DNA from: Sphagnum compactum
Taxonomy: Eukaryota
Direction of reading: 5' to 3'
NCBI GenBank assembly: GCA_965153455.1
Contig: OZ234493.1
Coordinates: forward strand, 7,864,213-7,928,212
DNA length: 64,000 bases
Below are positions 16,180 to 60,574 of the stretch, piece after piece. Each line of letters opens with the position of its first letter. Position 1 is the first letter of the stretch. Made by a program: the position numbers and the translations under genes. The notes below the pieces were generated by a model. It ran no database searches. It was not told the DNA's origin and saw only the letters and a list, made by a program, of their open reading frames with translations.

Positions 16180-17087
16180 TAGTTCCTCTCTTCCTTTTTA
16201 ATTGCTTTGATCATCTCTTGTTCAGTTCTACCAAGTGTTGATGGTAAGAGAGAGGCAAAGAGTAGTATTTGACATGTCCTCTTTCTCTACATAATGCTTG
16301 CAATAAAGCCCTCTCTCAGTTGAGGAGTGTGATCCAATAGTTGCAGCGGGTTTGTGAGAGTTTGGCAGAAGAAGTACATCACAAGTGCTTAAGGGTTCGA
16401 AAACTAAAAGCACTACCAAAAACTTCACAATGTACATAACATTTGGTTTGGGAGCATCCTGTTCTCCCTTGATGAATCATACATATGTTGATCGAGTTGA
16501 ATCTTGGTTGATTCTTCCAACAAACTATGCTAAAAATAGAATTCAGTGGCACCCAAAACAAGCTGACCACTACTACATGTCCCACTACTTAGTGTATAAT
16601 ACTGTCCAGATCCACATCATGACTACAGTCATCTTCCCATTTGATCAAAAGGATGCTTCAACTAGAACGCATCCAGAATTTATTCAAACACAAAAAATTT
16701 GTTTTCCACAACACTTTGAAGAGAACATTACAATGAGTATTGCATCAATCATATCCTTATGAGAATCACTCACAAAGTGTCAGACCACCATCACGAAGAG
16801 AAGAAGAAGCTTGAAGACGAAGACGGTTTAGGGTTAGGGCTAAACACGAAGAAGAAGAAGAAGAAGAAGAAGAAGGTGTGAACATGGTTGGTTTTGTTTC
16901 TTTTTGTTGTTGTGCGCACAATCGCCAACAACGGTTGTGTTTCCGTGTATCTCCTCCTCCTCCTCCTCCTCCTCCTCCTCCCACGCTGCTCCTCTTCTTG
17001 TGTTTCTTTCCAGCCAGGGTAACAGGAAGGAGGGAAGGAAGGAAGAGGAGGGGGTGTGCACTACTCTTGTGTCTTGGAGCAACAACC

Positions 17088-18439
17088 ATGGCTGGTGATC
17101 ATGGCAATGTGCATGTGGTGAACAGCAAGCAGCTCTGGGAGACGAAGGTCGAGGATGCCAAGAGCCGTGGCAAAATTGTGAGCGAATCTCTTCTGTCTCT
17201 CTCTCTCTCTCTCTCTCAATCCAATTTTCAACTCCCTGTTCTTGTCATATATATGTCTTCTGACAAGAAAACAAACTTGTGGCAAGAAGAAAAAGAAGTC
17301 TGAAGAGTACCTAGTGACAATTGCCTTCTTCTCATTTTGTTCTGGTTCTCAAACATACAATGATACAACTACTGTTGTCCACAGATTGTGGTAGACTTCA
17401 CAGCAACTTGGTGTGGACCATGCCGGCTTATGGCTCCAGTTTTCTCAGACCTGAGCAAGAAATATGACATTCTCATCTTCCTCAAGGTTGATGTTGATGA
17501 AGTCCAGGTGAGATTCTTCTTCTTCTTTCTGAACTTCTTCTTATTCTTCAATATCCATGATCACAGACAAGCAGGCATTGCCTTGCTAACTCTGATTTCA
17601 ACCATGACCTCTTCTTCAACACAGCCTCTTCTTCTTCTTCTTCTATTATTTTCCAGAACTTCTTCTTTTTTGTACTTTGTGACATGAGGACTGAAACAAT
17701 TTTACACATCCAACTTTTGGAAGTGCACTGCTGCAAGGTGCATCAGATCAAAGAGAACCAAATGCTTCTGAGACATGTGCATCAGATTCTTACATGTTGG
17801 ATGCACACAGTTTGTTGCCACCGCCACTCCCATCTTCTGTTTTTTGCAAGGTGCATCAGATTAAGAAAATTCAAATGCTTCTCAGACATGTGCATCAGTT
17901 TCTCACATCATGTTGTTTGTTTCTGCAAAGTTTGTTGGACCGCATGTTTCTGATCACCACCACCATCTTCTGTTCTTTGCAACATGCATCAGAATCAAAT
18001 GCTTCTCTCAGACATGTGCATCAGATTCTCACATGTTTGTTTCTGCCAAGTTTGTTGAACCACATGTTAGTCACCACTGCCATCTTCTGGTGTCCAATTG
18101 CAAAAACATATGCAAGAATGTATAAGCTATTATTTTTTAAGTGAAAGGGGTTTCATTTGTGTGTGTGTGTGTGTGTGTTAGGAGAAGGTCGATTCCTTTC
18201 CTTAGCTGGTGGTGCAAATGCTGTGGGTTTTGTTTGTGTGTGTGTGTGTTAAACTAGTAGTCAAATTTCCAAGAAGCAATTTGGCTACCATTGTGCAGGA
18301 GGTGACTACTGAGTGGGAGATTCGAGCAATGCCAACCTTCTTGTTCATCAAGGATGGGAAGCAGATTGACAAGATTGTTGGAGCAAACAAGGCAGATCTG
18401 GAGAAGAAATGCCACTATTATGCAACAAATCAATCGTAG
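17088..18439 (+). CDS. TRXH: h-type (cytosolic) thioredoxin, 3 coding exons: 17088..17177, 17385..17507, 18299..18439; 117 aa
   Basis: ATG in context aacaaccATGg. Spliced translation is [117 protein letters not shown]. It has the WCGPC active site plus the KVDVDE and AMPTF motifs. Both phase-0 introns are GT..AG (17178 gtgagc..cag 17384; 17508 gtgaga..cag 18298), matching the typical plant Trx-h exon layout. Confidence 0.95.
17731..18089. repeat. Three diverged ~115-130-bp tandem repeats in intron 2 of the thioredoxin gene
   Basis: The pattern tgcatcaga..caaatgcttct..agacatgtgcatcag..agtttgttg..ccatcttctg occurs three times. Confidence 0.85.
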
Positions 18440-24527: not shown

Positions 24528-24839
24528 CTAGTGGGTACCTGTGACGTTCGGACACAATCCGCCCGTGCCGAGCCCGCCCGTGCCGTGCCCAGCCCATCCG
24601 TGCTCAGCCCGTGCCCAGTCCGCCCGTGCCCGTGCCCAGTCCGTGCCCAGTCCGCCCATGCCGTGCCCGCCCGTGCCCAGTCCGTCCGTTCCGTGCCCCT
24701 CTCTCGGGCCCAGCCCGCCCGTGCTCGTGCTCAGTCCGTGCCCAGTCCCGTGCCCAATCTGTGCCCAATCCCGCCCGTGCCCGTGCCCAGTTCCCGCCCG
24801 TGCCCAAGACAGACGGGCTTACTGAATTAATATATATGA
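24528..24839 (-). mobile_element. Non-autonomous Helitron (312 bp), same 5' family as 9489..9856
   Basis: The minus strand reads A|TCATATATATTAATTCAGTAAGCCCGTCTGTC...CACAGGTACCCACTAG|T. The interior consists of CCCGTG/GCCCAGT GC-rich repeats. Confidence 0.8.
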
Positions 24840-30929: not shown

Positions 30930-33000
30930 CATCAACTTACCAATTTTTCATAATCATGACGAATTTGTTAAGGTTATCAACTCCTAATTTACAAGGTCAC
31001 ATGCTTGTTAACGTTCAAGTTATATTAAAGATTATTTTAGACTCAATCTAAGACCTAGGACTCTAAAAAATCTATCAAGCAACAGAAAATTTGTTTGGAA
31101 TCTATATTTTATGGGATTTCCAATAGGTTGGGGGTAATAAACAATCTTTAGGTTTCACATGGAAATGTTGAAATAAAAACAACCTGTTTTTTAACAACCC
31201 ACACAAAGTAGCCTCATTTGATGTCATTATTCCAAAAACATATTCATCATCATCAACCATAAGTGGTTCAATAGGGCCAACAATGCTAGGATTTTGGAAT
31301 TGAAAATCAACCATTAGTAGTGGCATCAAAGTCTTGTTGTCAGATTCCACCACTATACGATCATTTTTGCCTTCCCTACAAATATTTTCACCACATCAAG
31401 AGATTTATAGTGCAAATCCAACATCAATGCCAACATGTTATGAGCCTTGCTAACATTGTAAGTGGATGAAAATGACAAAAATGGAACCAAGATTGCAATG
31501 ACTTTTGCCATCATACACATGTGCACAATGCTTGCAATTCAGAATCAAACTTTCCCTTCACAAAATCAGTGGGGTTGGTCTCAAATTGTTCAATTTCACT
31601 TTGCAAACACACACTCATTGAAAATGTAGCACTTAAGGCATCAAAGACTAACCAATAACCTCAAGTTTGGTTTTAAATATATTGGTTTACAATGGGAAAC
31701 ATAGTTTCACAAATTGTTTTAAAAATTGTCCATGTTTGGGCATCTAACACACGACCATGTAACTCTAAAGTTTCTTGCTTCCCATAACAAAACTTAATGG
31801 CATCCCAATATTCTAGGGCTTTTTGGAAGAGAATCACCTTATTATTAGCAAACATAATTTTCAATGAGGGTTCAATTTTTTATGGTTGAGATTTGCATCA
31901 AGGCATGCCTTTTTCCATTCATTATGTCATTTGCAAGACTTTTTAATCTAGGTACTTGCTTTCTGTATGGAAGTTCAAATGGCATTCAAATTGACCTCTC
32001 CAAAACCAAGGCGTACATTTGCATCATTGCAAACATATTGACATGTTTTGTTGAAAGTGTGGCCAAAGCAAGACCCTTGCCAAGGAGCTACAAGTCCCAA
32101 AGGATTATATCTAACCACATAATTGAAAGCTTATGCAAAGGTGGACAAATTGCCACCCTCATTCTTCACAGGTGCAATCAATCTGTCCAACAAATTGCAA
32201 GATGACATTAGATATTTCACCTACATTGCCATTGTAACTTCAACCATGTTAGTGGTTTCAAACAATCTTGTTGTCACATGGCAAGGTACCCATTGTGAGT
32301 TAATGAAATTCATCACAAGTGTAAATGTGTCATGTCCAACTCTAAACATCCACAAATCACAAGAAACATATTCTAGACAAAAGAATCCAAAGTCGTCACA
32401 TATTGTTCCATGGTTTTGACCACCAATGAAGGGATGGCATGTCAAACCATTTGTTTCTAGTTGGAAACACAACTCATGGATTTTGATCCATGACCAAACA
32501 CTTCAACCATTGATTTTTCACAATAGAAATAAGCATATAGCCTTTAGCAACAAAGAATAAATCTTCCACAAACTTCTTTATTGTGCATCCTCCTTCTTGT
32601 AAGAATTAATACTCCCAAAATGGTATGTGATGGCCCCATACCCAACATTGATTTTGGACTTGGATTTTCCTCAATGTTGCTCTTTTGTTGCAACAAATAT
32701 ATTGGAACTCTTCTATCATGCCAAGTGGCTAGAGGCTTAAACAATTTATTTTTCTTCATAGAGATAATCCCATGCTATTGGTTATATGTGAATCACATTT
32801 TTTTGTTTCTTAATGGTATTGTTAGAACTATGCATATGGGGGACATAATGAGAATTCACACAACGCATGTTTTGAACGTTAATAGGATTTGGCTTATTGT
32901 TGTTGTTAACCACCAAAAAATGCCAAGGTAGAAAAACATGTGTTGAAAGATCCATGACTTAAAATTCAAGGTCATTTGAGTTTTAAATAACTCCTATGCA
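30930..33000 (-). mobile_element. Degenerate hAT transposase
   Basis: SCDLWMFRVGHDTFTLVMNFINSQWVPCHVTTRLFE contains the first catalytic D-x-W region (32221..32472). KVILFQKALEYWDAIKFCYG is at 31673..31864. A dimerisation-domain relic reads ..YWKSH..CKLGVDNLNKFVMIMKNW (~30940..31130). The element ends are uncertain, possibly ~25790 and ~34370, where TACCC-rich sub-terminal sequence occurs. Confidence 0.8.
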
Positions 33001-38600: not shown

Positions 38601-39664
38601 CATGACTTCATTTAGGGTTTAGGATTCCTATTTCAGAATCCAATGGTCCATGTGGTATCCATGTTTCTGACCCCAAAGGGCACTTGATTTCTTCAGGCCA
38701 GAATTGACCCTCTATTTGCATGTCCAAATGTTGAAGGTTGAGTACCTTCTGTGAATCAAAATGAACTGGTGGGTAACCAAGTGATGCAACCAGTTTGACT
38801 ATATTCTCATGTTTATGAAAACCATTTTGGAGTGTCATACAAGGACATTATTTGGGCACAAGAACTTAAATTAGCCTCTTACAGTGCAACATAAAGTGCC
38901 ATTCAAAAATGTTCATACCATTGTGGGGGCGGGTCTTTGATTTTGTATTACCCACCAGTTCCAGGGTTTAAGAAAAAATCAAAGTGATTGAACTACTAGT
39001 TCCAAGTATGAAAAACATTCAGAATGAAAGAACCAACAAAAACTCGGCAATTTTTAGGCGGTTGTGAACCATACCGACATAGCCATGTTCGGTAGTATCA
39101 ATTTTTAAGAGTTGCATCAGGGATATTTGAATGTGGTAAAGTTATTAGGGGTTTTTAACAACTTCATGTTGGAATAGGGGATGATGAATGCGCATTGTTC
39201 TATGGGGGGGTTGTTTTCTTTTCTGAAATACGATATTGGTGAATAAGGTGTTGGGTTACTTCTTTTCTTCAACAAAGAGCTGGTAAATCATAGTTTTAGA
39301 ACCTTAGTGGCGTAATTAGGGGTGAGAAATCTCTAGAGGGTTGGGGGTAAAAGCAGACACCAAAAATCGTGGTGTGCAACAAAACTTTGGTCTTGTTCTA
39401 ATATTTATTGAGTAGCAAGGATGTTTGAGATTCATGAAGCAAGTGAGGGGGTGTCAATGAAAGGTCCAACAGAGATAAAACAATCTTCAAACCTTATAAA
39501 CATAAAATTAAGTCGAAACAATTTAACGATTAAATAAACAAGGGGATAGGATGGCAATGGCAACATGAATTTCATAATGAATGAAACATTTATTTAGATT
39601 ATGGATGAGCTCAATAAGGAGCTGCAATTACATGTTGAGTCTTGGGCCATGCCATAATGATAGT

Positions 39665-40087
39665 TCATAACTGCAAAAAATCTAGGATGCGTCGAATGGT
39701 GTGAACTAGGTAGTCCGCTTTGCTATGAGGAGGTAGTCGGCGAATCGGATCGTGCAACCAACGATAGTGTCCAACGTTGGGAATTGAAGACCATGCGAAG
39801 ATGGAGGTGTCTTTAGTCTCATAACAACCTTCATAGACGGTTTCAAGTTCATCACCAAAAGCAGGGTTGACTTACAACAAAATCACCAGGGTGCGAGAGT
39901 TTGGAGAAATGCGATAATACCAAGCTCAAAAGGGTTCGACTGCAAGACGAGCGCACACCTCTCGTGGTTCGGGGTTTTCATCACGAGGATCTTGAGTCAA
40001 CATCAAATCTAAAGATGACTCCGGAGCCGGTTCTTCATTCACTTGTGTAGCTTGAAGTTCATAAAATGTGGCCATACGCAACGCCAT
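39665..40087 (-). pseudogene. Intronless 140-codon orphan ORF inside the solo-LTR-like element, with two premature stops
   Basis: One frame runs from ATG 40087 to TGA 39665..39667: MALRMATFYELQATQVNEEPAPESSLDLMLTQDPRDENPEPREVCARLAVEPF*AWYYRISPNSRTLVILL*VNPAFGDELETVYEGCYETKDTSIFAWSSIPNVGHYRWLHDPIRRLPPHSKADYLVHTIRRILDFLQL*. Minus-strand TATAAAT is at 40178..40184 and AATAAA at 39589..39594. Confidence 0.5.
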
Positions 40088-40335
40088 AATTTCAAGGAAA
40101 AGAGAAGAGATTTTCAATCAAAATCAAATCGACAATGAATGTGTGGAGGACTTGTGACATTGAGATGTGCGGTCGTAATTTATAAGTCAAAGAAAAGGGA
40201 GGAAATGCGTAAGTAACGGCCTAAAACCATGGTAAAGTAAAAGCTTAAGATCAAAGGAAAAAATGAATTTTTAAGTAAAATTTGTTGGGGGGAAAGTGAA
40301 AATAGGTAAAAAGGTGTTTCTCATTCTCCTTCCAA

Positions 40336-40454
40336 AGGCCACCAAACAATGGAACCTTCCATTGGCCACCAAGCATTGGAACCTTTCAAGGGCCACCAAA
40401 CAATGGAACCTTCTAAGGGCCACCAAGCAATGGAACCTTCCATTGGCCACCAAG
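40336..40454. repeat. 27-bp minisatellite, ~4.5 copies
   Basis: The unit GGCCACCAA(A/G)CA(A/T)TGGAACCTT... repeats head to tail. Confidence 0.9.
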
Positions 40455-40721
40455 TTGGGATTTCCTTCACCTCCTTCCTTCTCCTTCTCTTTAAAGGGAT
40501 GAATTCGGATCATTTGGAACGTTTTTTTTTCGGAGGATAATTTTCGATTCAAATCTTGAAAATACTTGTTCCCATAACCTTCTTGAGAAGGAAAAGAATG
40601 ATTAGGCTTAGTAGATGGTGAAAAGAATGAAAGTAGAATGACGTTTGAAGTAGTTTTGAAAGAATGGAAAATGAGTAGGCATAGTGTTAGGAGCTTAAAA
40701 TCTTAGAGAATTTTCACAAAC

Positions 40722-41084
40722 CTTCTCAGGTTTAGTAGCATAACTTCTTGCTGGTTTAGCTGCAGATCTTAGGATTTGGTAGGAAGGTGCGCCTTATAGT
40801 TAACTTTCTAATGAACTAAGGCAAGCCAGATTTGAATAACATATGTGTTAGGAATAATATTTCAAGTGACCGGTGGTCTAGAGCCAAGTTGAACTTTTTA
40901 CTTTCATAAAACCCTCTCGGGTTTGGTAACATAACTTCTTGCTGGTTTAGCTGCAGAGCTTAGAATTTGGTACAAAGGTGCACCTTGTAGTTAGCTTTTT
41001 AATGAGCCTAAGCAAACTAGATTTGGATAATGTATGTGGTAGGAAAAAAATTTAAGTGATTGGAGGTCTACTGCCAAGTTGAAC
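40722..41084. repeat. Diverged tandem duplication with a period of ~190 bp, 2 copies
   Basis: The segment cataacttcttgctggtttagctgcaga...gccaagttgaac occurs at ~40739..40894 and ~40930..41084. Confidence 0.85.
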
Positions 41085-43299
41085 ATGGAGTTGAACCCTT
41101 AAAAGTTGGTTTAAATGAATGACAATTTAACATAAAATTCTAGGATTTGGAATGTTTGGGCTTGGAAGATATATCTATCAATCCTAAATTATAAATGATG
41201 CATAGGAAGTAAGCTACTTGGTTTGAACTACAACCGCAATCTAATATCTAGAAATACACTTGCACTTTTCCTTCACCGATAACATATGTAATTTTAAGTA
41301 TAGTCACCTCATAGAACCAGGAGTAGAGGGACAAAAAGTCACCTCACACCGGTTATTTGACTTTTTCAATAAAAATCGAGAACCACAATTATATATAATA
41401 ATTATGTATTTGAATTTTTGATAATCATGGATATATAGCAAAACTGAATGTTTGATCTTTTTAATCAAGACTATCAACTTTCATACCTTGCCTGATACCC
41501 CCTAGTGGTGGTTTGGTGCCACTCTGGTTCATACACTCATGCACAAATTCTTAAGATCCCCCCCCCACCCCCAAAAGCTGACCTAAAGCAAAATGCTAAA
41601 TACCCCCATCGAGCTATGTCAACTGTTCTTCCCAAACACCATGCCCCACCACTAGAGCTTTCACCTAGCTAAGGGGGTGTCCTACCTCCCATCATTTGCA
41701 AAATGTTGTTGAGCATCCTCCCAAGCCTTTGTTGTCGACTAGGATTGCAATGTGGTCTATAGAATGCTCCCATGTTCTATGCAAATTTTTGTGTGCGCAT
41801 AGATTTGAAATCCAACTAAAAATAGAGCCTTCAAGGTTTTCAGTTTTTGATTTGCAAAGGTCAAGATTATGGGTGTAGCAAAACCGCAATGATTATGGTT
41901 CATTTCTTACATCTAAAATTAGACAATTTGTGATGATAAGATTCATGGCCAACCCACAACCATACATTTGATGCAAACCAACATAGCATGTTGTCACGAC
42001 TTCCAATTTTCTTGCGACGAACTTGAATCATTGATTTTTTAAAAAATTATTATTTGCTTCCAACTCCATTTGCAAAACAAGATTTTTTTGCTTGAAATAA
42101 ATTAGGAAATTGATTTCCTATCCATGCTTGCAAGAAAATTATTTAAGGTTGCATTAATCCTTTGTTGTGTCCTTTTTAGTTGTTTGTTGAACCTTTGTTT
42201 CTCATGGTTTTGGATTTCCATTGCAAATTTTGAATCATGCTTACTCAAAATTGAGGTTTCCATTCGGCATATCTTGTTCATAATCAAATATAGGGATTTC
42301 GGGTTGAAGAAAATTTCCAACTGTAATTCACATTTAACCTAGATTCCAATTCCTAGATATTATTCTTTAAAATTTAAGGTACAAAACCAAAGTGGTACAT
42401 CATTTGTGGGACTATAAAGTTTGATTATTGCAATCACATGCCAAGATTGCAAAGTTGTTGTGGATGTTGTAGGTACAAAAACATTACAAAATGTACCATT
42501 TCTTGTTTCGAATGAAAAAGATTTAATTCAAGCTTTGAAGGAGACAATGTAATTTCCTCCTCATGAACCATTTCAAAAGCACGATAGTAGGTAGCATGCT
42601 CATGTCACAACCGGGCATGTCCACTATAACCATACAAAAATTGTGGTCATTCCATGGGATCAATTTGAGAATTTTGTCCAAGGATAATAGAATAATCCTA
42701 AGTTTTCTTACAAATTTACAAGGACATAAGAACCCAAAATTTGTAATCTCCCAAACACATTGACACACCCTAGAGCAAATTCTATAGTGTTTGTTTACAT
42801 TTGTTTTTGAATTTCTAAAGTTATTCTTCTTCAAAGCAATGCATTTGGATTTATAGTTTGTTTACCATTTATTCTCACTTTCACAACCAGGTTTTGGAAT
42901 GTTCCATATGTGGAAAAGTTCTGTTTTCTAGGTCCCAAATTGAAATGACCTTGATCACAATTGGGTGCAGAACAACATTGCACCGTTGTGTAAAATATAG
43001 CAACTTCCAACCATTGTTTTCTAAGCTATTAATTGGTAGACTTATGACATTTATTTATATTCCTACCATTTGTAGGTCATTCAAAACTATTATATTTGTT
43101 TTGCAGATATTTTTGCAACTTTGGACTAGAAGATCAAATGAACATTCTACATGCAAACATGCAAAAGTTTCTCTTGTTTACACAACATAAATGCAAATAG
43201 AGGAAAATGAATGATACTATTGCCAAAAAAAAGGGAAGAAAAGCTTTGAGTGAGTTTCCATAATCGATCCAACATTCACAACCCAAATTTCGAATTGGG

Positions 43300-55682: not shown

Positions 55683-58600
55683 AATGACGAATTCCACAAC
55701 GAGCAAACTTGGGCTTGTTCGGATATCATTGATGAAACTCATGAACCTTCTCCATGGCATTTGATAGGTTTTTGATTGGTTCCCAAGTGCGTTCTTTCAC
55801 ATCATACTAATGCTAGTATTGGAGTTGACAATTAAAAATCTTTGAATCCAAAATGTTATTCACTTCATATTCATGTTTAGCATCAACTTGAATAGGTGGA
55901 GAGGGATCATGAATTCTTCTTAGAATGGTAGATGTGTGGTAAGGTTCCAACAAGGAAACATGAAACACAAGATGGATTTTTATAGAACTTAGAAGCTTGA
56001 GTTGGAAAACCACGACATTGATTTGTTTCACAATGAAGAACAAACATAACCTCTGATGATCCAACTTCTCTGTTGGCCTTGTTGTCTTAATATGTTGTGT
56101 GAAAGTTAAACCTGGTCCTTGACAAAGCTAAGTTGTTCCTTTTAACATTCATCAGCATTTTCCTTGTATAATGCATTTCTTCAAGGTTACATACAAGTTG
56201 AGCTCGAACATCCGCTCACCACATGGCTCAATATTTAATTATCAGATTCACAATTTGTGCACACCTTGAATGTCAAATTTGGGGTGCAAACCATGATTTG
56301 CAAAGAATGTGTTTATTGGGTCAATGAATGCACTACGTTGTTATAAACAAATTCTGCCATGGCCAAAAGTTCTGACCAATTATTTTGATGATAATTGGTT
56401 ATGCATTGTAAATATTGATTTAAGACTTGATTGACCCATTCTATCTGTCCATCCATCTAAGGGTGGAAAGTTAATGATAATTTCACCTTCACATCTAAAA
56501 GATCAAATAGTTGCTTCCAGAAGTTGGATGCAAATTGAAGCTCACGATCAAAAATGATATCTTTAGGGAGACCATCATATCAAAAAACATGATCAAAAAA
56601 TAACTTGGTTATTCCTTTGCCAATTATTGTTTTGGTACACAGAATGAAATGAACCATCTTCGTTAAACGGTCCACCACCATCAAAATGGAGTCATAAGAA
56701 CTAGAAGGTGGAAGGTTTGTGATGAAGTCCATGGAAATTGAAGATCACAAGGATGCAAAGATTGGCAATGGTTGAAAGAGATCATGAAGGTGATGATGAG
56801 GTTTCTCACAAAATCCAACAAACTCCTTCACATATTCCAAAACTTTGGCCACCAATAATCTCGAAACACTAATTCCATGGTCTTGTTGAATCCAAAATGG
56901 CCTGTAGCCAAAACATTGTGCCTAACTTGGAGAATTTAAAATCACATAGGGCCATCAAGAACATGCAAAAGACCATCACAATATAATAAACCATCCTAAA
57001 ACTTGAACTTAGCATGATCATTATAAAAACTTGATGATGATTCCTTAATTGGCCTTGGATGTCAATAGCAAGAAGGTCTTTCTTTAAGTATTTACAAATT
57101 TGACAAAAAAAGGTTGTGTCATTAGGAATTACCAACAATGCAAGAAGTCAAAGATGTTCAAGCTTGATAATGACATCACATTGTTGTTCAGAGGTTGCAT
57201 TTCCCTTCTTAGGCGCAAGGTACGAGCGATGGGACAATGCTATCAAGTTTCCCCTTGCTAGCACCCAGGGCGATATGTGATGACAAATCGAAATTGAAAC
57301 AAAGACAATGCCCATCGAACTTAACATTGATTTAAAACATGAAGTGAAGGTTCTTATGATTAAAATACATAATCATTTCATGTTGAATTCCTTCAAGTAA
57401 GTGACATCATTTTTAAAAAACATCAATAATGGCCAAGAGTTATTTGTCATGAATCTCGTAATTAATCTCAACATGAAAAAACTTACAAAAATAATAACCA
57501 ATAGGATGAAGGAAATCATCATTTTTAGGTTGTGAGAGCACAACTCCTAATGCAAAATTAGAAGCATCTGTCTCCAAGACAAAGGATTAAGAAAGGTCTA
57601 CATGAATCAATAATGGAATAATTATGAAGAAAAACTTCAAAGATTAAAAGGCAATTTCAGTTTTAGGTCCCCAAGAAAAAGGTTGATCCTTTCGAATTAG
57701 ATGAATAAGATGAGCCACTATTGTGGAATAGTGCGTAATGAAACATTGATAAAAATTTGCAAACCCAGGAAAACATTGAACATCACGAATAGAAGTTGGG
57801 GTACCCTAGTCCACAATTGTTTAAACCTTGCAAAAATCCATGTGCACACCATCTCCATAAATGATGTAACCAAGGAATTCCACTTCAATTTAATGAAACT
57901 CACATTTCTCCAATTTGGCATAAAATCCAACTTCCTTGAGCTTGTCCATAACAAATCAAACATGTTGTTCATGCTCTTCAAAGTTCTTGGAGCAAATGAG
58001 GATGTCAACAATGTAACAAACCTTGAAATCATCTAGGTATTCACGAAAGTCATCATTCATGAAATGTTGAAAGACAACATGTGCATTCCTAAAGCCAAAA
58101 GGCATCACCACATACTCAAAATGACCATAGCATGTACAAAATGTAGTCCTCCATTCATCACCTTCTTGAATACACACCAAGTTGTATGCACCACGCAAGG
58201 CGATCTTGGAGTACATTTTGGCCTAACTGAGTTGATCCAATAATCTTGATATCAAAGGTGGTGGGTATTAATTTTTGATGGTGAGTCGATTCAGCCCACG
58301 ATAATCGACACACATTTGGAGGGATCCATCCTTATTCTTGATAAACATGATCGAAGCACCAGTTAGAGACTTGGAATGTCATGCTTGTGATAGTGGCTTC
58401 ACCATCCAAAGGTTCTTGCTTGGGTGCTTCAAAATGGAGACTCTTCATATGCCAATCCATTCGTGGATTATGCAAAACAAGTCAAGATAATTCAATGATG
58501 ATTGGGTTCTTCGAGGATGAAATGACATTGAACACAACCTTGCTAAAATGTGACCTAATGGTGATCTCCAACATGGGTCTCATGTGTCATAAGTCCTAAG

Positions 58601-60574
58601 GAAGGTCTCCAAACGTCAATGAATTCAACTCTTATCAATGTCATTTTTTTCACCAAGGCCAACTTATGTTGTTGCACTAACTATTTGTTAATAAAACATG
58701 CAAATGCATCATAGTTAAACAATGTTCGAGTCTTTATTATCTTGTTACATTTGATCATGACTAGTAACAAGAAACTGGGTTTAGATCTGAAAACAAGCTA
58801 GGACCAATCCTAACACATGATGTATCGAAGTCTAGTCTCAAGGTCCTTACTAAGAATGGACATCTTCATTTTTTGATCCTCCAAATTTTGAATTAGTGAA
58901 AGAAGTGGCCTATGTTGTATGTGGATTTTGTTTCTTTGGACACTCACAAGTAGCATGACCTCATCCTCCACAATATAAACAAAGGTTGTTTGTATGTTGT
59001 CATTGTTTTTGTTTTTCAATGAGGGGTTTGAATCTTGTCTCATCAATTTGCATGGATTGTCCTTTGTTGTTGATTTGGTTGGGGTGGCATGGAGGTTATG
59101 AAATTTTTATGTACGGGCGATGGCTCCCATGGTGAAAACACATTACGGGGGGGCCACTTTGGGCAATTTCACAACATGTATGTAATGTACATTTCTACAA
59201 AACTTGTAACACTTAATTTTGGGTTTCACTTTTGGTGTTTGGGCTTGATATTTTGATTTTCACAAAGTCTATGATATTTAATATTATTTGAAAAAAAATC
59301 AAGGAATAATAGGTATATTTATGGTTTATACAATATAATAGAGCCTATTCTTATTTTTGGACTTCACTAGATTTGGGTTTGAATTAGTTAACCAAAAAAT
59401 GTTTGAAGTGAAATTTTTAAAATGACCCACTTCACATATCTTGTCGTCTTCCATTTGAAAGTGATAGTTTGTCAAATGTTTATTTACAACATATTTATAG
59501 TCATCGCCCCCAAAAACACCCCTTTGTGATATGATAATTATCAAACTCTTCACATGGTTCACAAACTTATTCCAATCATATGGAATCACAATGTTTAATA
59601 GATACAAAAAAAATTCATAAAGACTAAAAATAATTTCAATCATTTTTTGAGTATATTTGCATTTTTTAATACGTTATGTTTTTTTTTTGCACAAATATAT
59701 TCTAACATCATATCATATTATATTTAAAAATGTAATTTATTTGGAATTTGATTTATTTGGGTTTGACCTACCAAAATATGTAAAGACATTGTGAAAATCC
59801 TTCATAATAATGACATGGTTGAAGTTCAAACATGGGACCCCTAAAAAGTAGTATAATGTGACAACAATTTTGGCCCCCCCATAGTGTGCTTTCACCCCCC
59901 AATGCTTTTTTTAGCAATGTTTAGAAAGACAATTGTCACAATGAACAACTGATGCAATTGTTTGACTCAAGGTTGTGGGATTTAACATAGTTAGAAGTAA
60001 GTTTTTCACATTGCTGCGTGTCCCAAATTGGAACTAATTCTTGAGTGCAACCTCGTCCCATGAAATGTCACATGTTAATTGCTTGAATTCAAATGGATTC
60101 ACAAATGCAAGTTGTGATCTTTGACGAAGAGATTGCAACTTGCTAGTAGATGTGCCTTCTCCATCCGAATCTCCAAAGGTTGTTGTGAATTATTTGAAAA
60201 ATGTTTCAAAGTTGTTTAAAAGTGATGATTGTCGTTCAAGTAACAATGCAAACTAGGCTAGTGCAGTGCCTAATAATAGAATGCTAATGAGTCCAACATG
60301 GGTTCGTCCATCTAGATAATGGTGAGGATGAAGTCAAATGACCAAGCGCACCTAATTGAACTTTGAACGATCAGTCCCATCAAATTCAAAAAGACTAATT
60401 CAAGGCTCCTTTGTTGGAATTTGCATTGTTGGAACACACCCTAATGACATTAAAACCTGGTATTTTGGAAATGCATGACATAGTCACGAAAAAATTGACT
60501 TTCTTGTTGACATGTTGAAGAATTGCAAGAATTTCTTCCATGGATGCCATCAATTCTTTTCTAGACATAGACAT
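55681..60574 (-). pseudogene. gag-pol of the chromovirus (many stops and frameshifts)
   Basis: Gag starts MSMSRKELMASMEE at 60574. The zinc knuckle reads CLYCGG*GHATCECP (~58935..58985). RT reads GAYNLVCIQEGDEWRTTF..YGHFEYVVMPFG..CYIVDILI, with YxDD mutated (57956..58216). RNase H reads FVLETDASNFALGVVLSQ (~57535..57585). Integrase reads [33 protein letters not shown] (~56640..56745). VFHVSLLEPY and the chromodomain YEVNNILDSK..RTWEP lie at ~55720..55970. Confidence 0.9.
59130..59897. mobile_element. Non-autonomous TIR DNA transposon (MITE-like, 768 bp) nested in gag; 4-bp TSD
   Basis: Left end is tGGTGAAAACACATTACGGGGGGGCCA and the reverse complement of the right end is GGGTGAAAGCACACTATGGGGGGGCCA. 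The TSD is CCCA (59126..59129 and 59898..59901). Removing the element and one TSD copy restores the gag reading ...KHWEPSP... Confidence 0.85.

Follow-up and report, generated by a model that had tools for sequence, protein, structure and literature searches.

What does an open-looking antisense reading frame do inside a long terminal repeat (LTR), the part of a retrotransposon that is usually taken as non-coding? The question is raised by a 2286-bp element in a 64,000-nt stretch of the moss Sphagnum compactum (contig OZ234493.1, positions 7,864,213 to 7,928,212; hereafter the window), which a preliminary description made from the letters alone had presented as a solo-LTR-like element carrying its own gene. 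Here we find that the element is a solo LTR of a Ty3/gypsy retrotransposon and that it almost certainly carries a selected antisense gene, here decayed but open in other natural copies. For the case as a whole our best explanation, a selected LTR gene whose product would act as a host-directed accessory factor, is one that we regard as plausible while placing it somewhat short of probable.

A solo LTR with an antisense gene cassette

In good agreement with the preliminary description, the element starts with TGTGA at 39063, ends with TCACA at 41348 and is flanked by a near-perfect 5-bp target-site duplication (TSD; GCGGT/CCGGT). The interruption of a host repeat that had been proposed gained thin but positive support, with an uninterrupted version found elsewhere (3 exact pattern matches versus 0 in a control). 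A DNA search of the moss's own genome with the LTR gave 443 candidates, of which 40 were scored and 30 loci fetched. Both LTR ends are visible in 24 of these 30 copies, where the 5-bp TSD is perfect in 15, has one mismatch in 8 and two mismatches in 1. The preliminary description had also called for a search for copies flanking gag-pol, and in other copies the LTR repeat does adjoin a primer site and gag-pol: members of the family (hereafter the focal family) stand as 5' LTRs on C4, C6, C3, C10 and C20 and as 3' LTRs on C15, C19 and C20. We conclude that 39063..41348 is a solo LTR, left by recombination, of a moss non-chromovirus Ty3/gypsy element. As a separate observation, four LTR copies (L080, L081, L082, L085) have flanks that are 97% identical over 1.5 kb, suggestive of segmental duplication or of carriage inside another repeat.

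The 423-nt minus-strand frame is as first described: 141 codons including the stop, no frameshift and two internal stops. It lies at nt 603-1025 of the LTR, wholly inside it, and on the strand opposite to gag-pol in every linked copy examined. Its upstream minus-strand TATAAAT and downstream AATAAA are both present and conserved, so that the notion of an LTR-borne open reading frame (ORF) antisense to gag-pol, with its own TATA box and poly(A) signal, is upheld (Table 1). The raised CpG content is also real, with an observed/expected ratio of 1.03 in the frame; the remainder of the LTR has 0.27-0.45 and the remaining window 0.24-0.27. The LTR promoter suggested for the opposite strand fared less well: the plus-strand TATAAAT at 41190-41196 is indeed there, but it is seen in 1 of 30 copies, namely the window copy itself, and no plus-strand TATA[AT]A common to at least 8 of the 30 copies was found anywhere in the LTR.

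The frame is more intact than expected by chance. Among 30 copies picked by DNA likeness, the length of exactly 423 nt is kept in 21, five of which have no internal stop, and the mean number of stops per copy is 1.6 in the gene frame versus 4.1-11.5 in the other five frames. A protein search of the same genome gave 674 gene candidates, of which 150 were scored; 22 of the best 30 are free of stops.

The protein has been kept by purifying selection

Between young subfamilies the ratio of non-synonymous to synonymous divergence (dN/dS) is 0.05, 0.08 and 0.14, that is, below 1 among copies, the outcome on which the preliminary description had made its proposal depend. For the most distant young pair, 42 synonymous and 4 non-synonymous differences are fixed, whereas the changes within groups split 17 to 17 (p 6e-5); the same contrast holds for a second pair (p 2e-4) but falls short of significance in the third (p 0.10). 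A dS inflated by CpG is not the explanation, because dN in the most distant young pair is about one ninth of the divergence of the flanks. Note that the young subfamily groups had been chosen by protein likeness, which biases dN down, and the test was therefore repeated on 12 copies chosen by DNA likeness only. Group-diagnostic changes were then 25 synonymous to 9 non-synonymous, as against 34 to 78 for private changes (p 2e-5). When the other five frames were put through the same test, one opposite-strand frame gave a weaker echo (p 0.002), but that frame has about 8 stops per copy. The indel rate points the same way, at 0.98 versus 8.9 per kb per copy. A variant-frequency test suffered from recurrent transitions of the methylation type, which made it noisy (ratio 1.6 for changes present 2-3 times), and is superseded by the subfamily and DNA-picked tests.

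Within the old group to which the window copy belongs dN/dS is 0.70, and 66 of the 108 changes private to the window copy are C>T or G>A; this copy has decayed after insertion. Taken together, the protein has been kept by selection while the family transposed, and inserted copies decay neutrally.

Homologues in sister families, other mosses and a chromovirus

To call the gene an orphan, as had been done at first, is too strong: it has homologues in Physcomitrium, in Ceratodon, in other Sphagnum species and in a chromovirus. The closest named homologues, at 84-86% identity, are from Sphagnum tenellum and S. troendelagicum. A sister family has a gag-pol with about 68-70% DNA identity to that of the focal family, the same primer site and an LTR of 2653 bp that is mostly unalignable; this LTR, too, carries an antisense homologue, of 44-46% amino acid identity (dS saturated, dN 0.45). 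In one sister element (TSD CTCAA, LTR identity 99.2%) the gene is letter-identical in both LTRs. A third family has the gene in the same layout, in two copies sharing 2.15 kb that starts TGTGAGCC. These families are also found nested with others: a chromovirus sits in the pol of a sister element (L177-L178, C19:3797300-3787500), and a sister-family solo LTR sits in a focal-family internal region (L171, C9:1002670-1004926).

Outside the genome, 260 cluster representatives were found at E <= 0.001, with identity down to about 30%; among them are gene models from Physcomitrium patens and Ceratodon purpureus that occur in many dispersed copies. Two homologues, the Ceratodon gene model KC19_5G095800 and an unnamed protein (P0065, P0059), have two tandem copies of the domain and could represent a domesticated gene or a host source. 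A further homologue (P0320), labelled Kitasatospora herbaricolor, comes from a 549-base contig, is 80% identical to the Physcomitrium-type protein and is probably contamination.

When metagenomes were scanned with the Physcomitrium-type protein, 105 candidates yielded 2 loci. L217, the longer of them, is a gypsy element bearing a chromodomain; its homologue lies at 2284-2706, in sense orientation and outside the LTR, with the end of pol on one side and an ordinary polypurine tract on the other. This chromovirus stands in tandem with a second copy, with one LTR common to both, and its RNase H-integrase (RH-INT) region is 30% identical to that of the focal family. The gene is thus older and more mobile than the focal family and is common to an unrelated lineage, where it has another position and another orientation.

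The parent element is Athila-like

On the plus side of the LTR copies, the order 3' of the LTR is TTG, an 18-nt primer site and gag-pol. All 18 of its positions agree with host tRNA-Gly(TCC), taken as the 3' end of the gene followed by CCA, and the site is perfect in both the focal and the sister family. The sole focal element seen with both LTRs (C20:2198286-2189448; L100, L101; TSD GGGTT) has long open gag-pol frames. Both of its LTRs are short, without nt 134-1723 and with the same junction in each. Pfam matches to three of its frames (Retrotrans_gag, RVT_1, RT_RNaseH, Integrase_H2C2 and rve) give the gypsy order Gag, protease (PR), reverse transcriptase (RT), RNase H (RH), integrase (INT), the protease region being recognised by eye only. 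No Pfam match to a chromodomain was found in these frames, nor was a second (archaeal-type, Tat-like) RNase H (aRH) found in the RT or RH-INT frames, the region before RT being covered as far as the open frames reach. Besides this element, internal regions starting at nt 191-225 of its internal sequence are seen at three loci with no 5' LTR near (L169, L173, L185), and next to it L101:2421-3540 has frames that, by eye, are like plastid ndh genes and might be a plastid-derived insertion.

In a tree of 12 RH-INT proteins, which included no classified reference sequences (REXdb), the nearest neighbours of the focal family are Riccia and Cryptomeria sequences, a grouping that is not firm (90/89); angiosperm relatives fall outside it, and two chromoviruses are split off at 100/100. 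The integrase C-terminus also sets the family apart from chromoviruses. Similar to the Athila clade as it is described in the available parts of PMC6317226 and of the ATHILAfinder preprint (10.64898/2026.03.20.713144), the focal family has the Gag-PR-RT-RH-INT order, no aRH, no chromodomain, a 5-bp TSD and long LTRs, and its RH-INT is about 40% identical to that of the angiosperm relatives. Athila elements, according to the same partial sources, differ in priming from a tRNA for Asp, Asn or Ala and in having a conserved polypurine tract, whereas the focal family has tRNA-Gly(TCC) and no such tract; the focal family also has no 3' internal ORF, and its nearest grouping is with Riccia and Cryptomeria at 90/89 only. 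We would therefore describe the family as Athila-like, failing two Athila features (primer tRNA and polypurine tract), on a tree built without classified references. In the part of the REXdb survey that we could draw on, which dealt with frames of at least 250 codons only, no gypsy lineage has a dominant tRNA-Gly site (PMC6317226).

Other placements were rejected. Phygy elements are expected to have a 4-bp NCGN TSD and a tRNA-Trp site, as against 5 bp and tRNA-Gly here; a chromovirus is contradicted by the missing chromodomain match, the C-terminus and the 100/100 split; and the Tat group (TatI-III, Ogre, Retand) is contradicted by the lack of a second RNase H in the frames covered. The opposite orientation of the LTR, in which the gene would be sense and a tRNA-Arg-like site at the other end would be the true primer site, is disfavoured: gag-pol lies after the perfect tRNA-Gly 18-mer, and the Arg site is imperfect.

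A tRNA-Arg(ACG)-like site in place of the polypurine tract

Three intact 3' junctions were available, two from the focal family (C15:5045740-5045794, L170; C19:1770418-1770470, L186) and one from the sister family (C19:3783859-3783915, L213). A polypurine tract is absent before the 3' LTR: the longest purine run within 60 nt is 5-6, versus 11 in a chromovirus control, and 9-10 of the last 20 nt are purines. Instead, all three junctions have a degenerate 3' half of the host tRNA-Arg(ACG), ending in CCA 2 nt before the TG of the LTR. This CCA is not encoded by the host tRNA genes (tRNA-Arg genes were found by pattern in 8 of 9 loci checked, from 18 matches). On the minus strand the site reads as a primer-binding site.

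The junctions score 13, 10 and 14.5; scores reached no more than 7.5 among 64 solo-LTR flanks and 11.5 among 20,000 random 30-mers. Four tRNA ends entered this test, which was devised post hoc. The two focal junctions, which are related to each other, first came to light through a pattern demanding TGG; structure alone led to the sister junction, which is the best match to tRNA-Arg(ACG), at 16 of 17 nt. Upstream, in the place of the T-loop, a 16-nt hairpin differs in sequence between the two families and has the same pairing in both. A second colinear upstream box fits tRNA-Arg(ACG) better than tRNA-Arg(TCG), although by itself this box is weak (scores of 11-16, the value of 11 being reached by 273 of 20,000 random windows). 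The 3' junction of the C20 element is rearranged and locally inverted, without the 3' box. A junction at C4:6161414 came from a search pattern derived from the motif itself; no element adjoins it, and it is not counted as support. A match at C16:13398677 is due to chance.

Canonical LTR priming, as set out in the portion of PMC7264820 at hand, uses a tRNA at the primer-binding site and a polypurine tract for the plus strand. The perfect 18-nt tRNA site after the focal 5' LTR conforms to this scheme; the 3' side, with no polypurine tract and a tRNA-Arg(ACG)-like half 2 nt before the LTR, departs from it. One way to read this arrangement is that tRNA-Arg would anneal to the minus-strand cDNA and then prime the plus strand. 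In standard reverse transcription only the first-strand primer site is recopied from the tRNA in each cycle, and for this reason a perfect Gly site together with an imperfect Arg site would fit plus-strand priming by tRNA. On these sequence grounds we consider such priming possible, but rather less than probable. A tRNA-DNA hybrid would lie open to RNase H before it could prime, which weighs against such priming, as does the number of intact junctions, which is only three.

We lean slightly to the alternative, in which the site is a mimic of the LTR end (a circle-junction-like att copy), the relic of a captured tRNA, or a primer that is excised from the genomic RNA and withstands RNase H without being a purine tract. 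Beyond the RNase H exposure and the small number of junctions, it draws on the likeness of the last 9-10 nt of the focal junctions to the LTR's own right end and on a short palindrome that they form with the LTR start. The sister family speaks against it, since the match to tRNA-Arg(ACG) persists there, and is at its best, with an LTR end unlike the site, and the second box and the hairpin, with its changed sequence and unchanged pairing, are kept in both families. We found no description of a second tRNA site replacing the polypurine tract in the literature searched, which did not extend to most subscription papers and Repbase reports. If it is true that the tRNA-Arg site primes the second strand, these elements would be an exception to polypurine-tract priming.

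What the protein might do

The predicted protein has a variable acidic N-terminus, probably disordered, followed by a conserved domain of about 85 residues with predicted strands, a GHxxWLxGP motif and a C-terminal helix. It is not basic (15 K/R versus 21 D/E) and has no hydrophobic segment or membrane helix of the kind found in env (highest 19-residue hydropathy 0.47). No relative was found in IMG/VR.

We propose that the antisense cassette (TATA box, ATG, 140 codons, AATAAA) is self-contained within the LTR and that its product would be a soluble, diffusible accessory factor acting in trans, one that may help retrotransposons with little else in common (about 30% RH-INT identity, different priming layouts). 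Its carriers are unlike in their enzymes, in LTR sequence and in how priming is arranged, which favours a host target over a cognate Gag, RT or DNA motif. The target would thus most likely be a host component, probably in silencing or in another host restriction, rather than the element's own Gag, RT or DNA sequence, and the LTR position would give two copies per element and leave a potential helper gene in every solo LTR. A host-directed counter-defence function such as counter-silencing is, to our mind, a tenable candidate that still stands below an even chance.

Several observations count against a selected gene with a host-directed product. Both LTRs of the C20 element are deleted for the gene, which makes it dispensable in cis in at least one insertion; the fetched loci include no focal element in which two full-length LTRs both bear the gene, such a pair being seen in the sister family only; and the chromovirus context consists of one metagenome contig and old Physcomitrium gene models. 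RNA evidence, which the preliminary description had asked for, amounts to 1 read, less than 90% alike, from one poly(A) run of which about 12%, or 11.9 million records, was compared with a single central copy at 82% likeness; this single read is compatible with silenced repeats. The suggestion that the protein belongs to no assignable family has held up for Pfam, and no family or fold match points to a function: Pfam gave no match for the domain in 4 open copies and 29 homologues, a sequence profile against the PDB gave 0 matches, and the ESM Atlas gave no usable feature match for two queries and no structure match with a TM-score above 0.37. Foldseek against the PDB and BFVD returned nothing at E <= 0.001 and the best VIA-align Z was 3.7, in searches that used low-confidence models; the two AlphaFold2 models have a pLDDT of 50 and 53, which is low, with only the C-terminal helix confident.

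Among the other explanations, a self-limiting regulator, with solo-LTR build-up raising the dose and dampening transposition or an antisense RNA acting alongside the protein, appears unlikely to us. The antisense promoter is the sole conserved TATA box in the LTR, gene candidates outnumber gag candidates by 674 to 139, and regulation by antisense RNA is discussed for the antisense ORFs of plant elements in the accessible part of PMC7264820. Action through RNA would nonetheless leave the strong selection at the protein level unexplained. Furthermore, the chromovirus gene is in sense orientation and outside the LTR, so that neither antisense RNA nor solo-LTR dosage can be common to all carriers.

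We give an equally low chance to a role within the particle or during reverse transcription, such as chaperoning the annealing of the two tRNAs or assisting nuclear import. The families with the LTR gene do also have the tRNA-Arg-like site replacing the polypurine tract, but an ordinary tract is present in the chromovirus carrier, with no tRNA site evident after its LTR, the carriers' enzymes are only about 30% identical, and the protein is not basic. Less likely again is that a fragment of a host gene was captured and, outside the retrotransposition cycle, benefits the host cell or has a selfish, toxin-like effect: the Ceratodon model with two tandem domains (P0065) would suit it, whereas most named homologues are dispersed multi-copy models, as is typical of transposons, and the neutral decay of inserted copies, seen in their private changes, runs counter to it. 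That the frame arises only from GC-rich sequence in the LTR and has no function could be argued from the two stops of the window copy, the dN/dS of its old group and the single RNA read, but is refuted by the dN/dS between subfamilies, and stop counts, indel rate, the DNA-picked test and the conservation seen in three families and in three genera of mosses leave it next to no probability.

One can also combine the two proposals, with tRNA-Gly priming the minus strand and tRNA-Arg(ACG) the plus strand, and with the LTR gene being a general counter-defence helper of new fold that moves between unrelated lineages and is seeded by solo LTRs; we think it rather unlikely that all of this is right at once.

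Comparison with known accessory genes

Conserved extra genes antisense to gag-pol are known from plant gypsy elements (Grande gene23, RIRE2, the TRP28 ORFs of Retand, PvRetro13), and in this the moss gene is like them, as far as PMC7264820 and PMC11963269 cover them in the parts available. For Grande these texts report an upstream promoter of the antisense gene's own, and they treat the function of antisense additional ORFs (aORFs) in plants as not known. Such aORFs (aORF-3R) lie between pol and the 3' LTR, unlike the moss gene, which is wholly in the LTR with its own poly(A) signal and, at 140 codons, is below the 250-codon cut of the REXdb survey (PMC7264820, PMC11963269 and PMC6317226, each in part). 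The aORFs are described, again in the available part of PMC7264820, as having no similarity to other transposons. The moss protein differs further in having neither TRP28 nor another Pfam domain and in being carried by a chromovirus as well.

The precedent that we found for a gene kept in solo LTRs is retroviral: sag of mouse mammary tumour virus (MMTV), which is in sense orientation. Like the moss gene, sag lies in the LTR (mostly in U3), is kept in hundreds of solo LTRs and shows purifying selection from the replicating phase, and it has promoters of its own, as would be the case for the moss gene, according to what is available of PMC4667437. By the same source sag belongs to a vertebrate betaretrovirus and acts on T cells. 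No sequence likeness to the moss gene was found, and the functions cannot match. VANC proteins of VANDAL DNA transposons offer a parallel as transposon-encoded accessory proteins, action in trans against the host being only hypothetical for the moss protein; they are, in the sections of PMC13547354 and PMC10398659 available, sequence-specific for their own family, whereas the moss protein is common to unrelated lineages, and no homology was found.

An accessory gene wholly inside a plant LTR, common to several gypsy lineages and with no fold match from low-confidence models, appears to be new. No description of an LTR-encoded protein in plant retrotransposons was found, in a literature search lacking most subscription papers (e.g. 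Steinbauerova 2011) and Repbase reports, and the accessible portions of two papers on moss elements (PMC7466625, PMC2864245) make no mention of an LTR gene. A selected gene cassette in a plant LTR would turn hundreds of 'dead' solo LTRs into potential helper genes, and would mean that many 'hypothetical proteins' of mosses are transposon genes. Since the protein is common to a chromovirus and to non-chromoviruses, the role of accessory proteins in plant retrotransposons could be tested in Physcomitrium, which has homologues and is open to gene targeting.

Other features of the window

Table 1. Features of the solo LTR and its antisense gene, in window coordinates.
Feature	Position	Strand	Remark
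Left target-site duplication GCGGT	39058..39062	+	
Solo LTR, 2286 bp, TGTGA..TCACA, non-chromovirus Ty3/gypsy family	39063..41348	+	strand is that of gag-pol sense
AATAAA poly(A) signal, 71 nt past the stop codon	39589..39594	-	kept in 30/30 copies
Antisense accessory gene, 140 codons	39665..40087	-	decayed here, open in other natural copies
Conserved C-terminal domain, about 85 aa (beta strands, GHxxWLxGP, C-terminal helix)	39668..39922	-	common to homologues of other mosses
Internal stops of the window copy	39928-39926 (codon 54), 39874-39872 (codon 72)	-	
TATA box of the antisense gene (TATAAAT)	40178..40184	-	kept in 28/30 copies; sole conserved TATA in the LTR
Tandem array, 27-bp unit, 4.7 copies	40328..40454	none	
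Unit of about 190 bp, two copies	40718..41084	none	more units in other LTR copies
TATAAAT private to the window copy, no conserved promoter element	41190..41196	+	1/30 copies
Right target-site duplication CCGGT	41349..41353	+	one mismatch versus left

Elsewhere in the window, exons of a thioredoxin-like gene with a WCGPC motif lie at 17061-17687 on the plus strand, and a GC-rich tandem array of GCCCGT-type units occupies 24558-24805. Broken minus-strand frames at 31102-32502 resemble, by eye, a remnant of a hAT-type transposase, and degenerate Ty3/gypsy pol fragments (RT-like and chromodomain-like, also by eye) are found at 55813-59106 on the minus strand.

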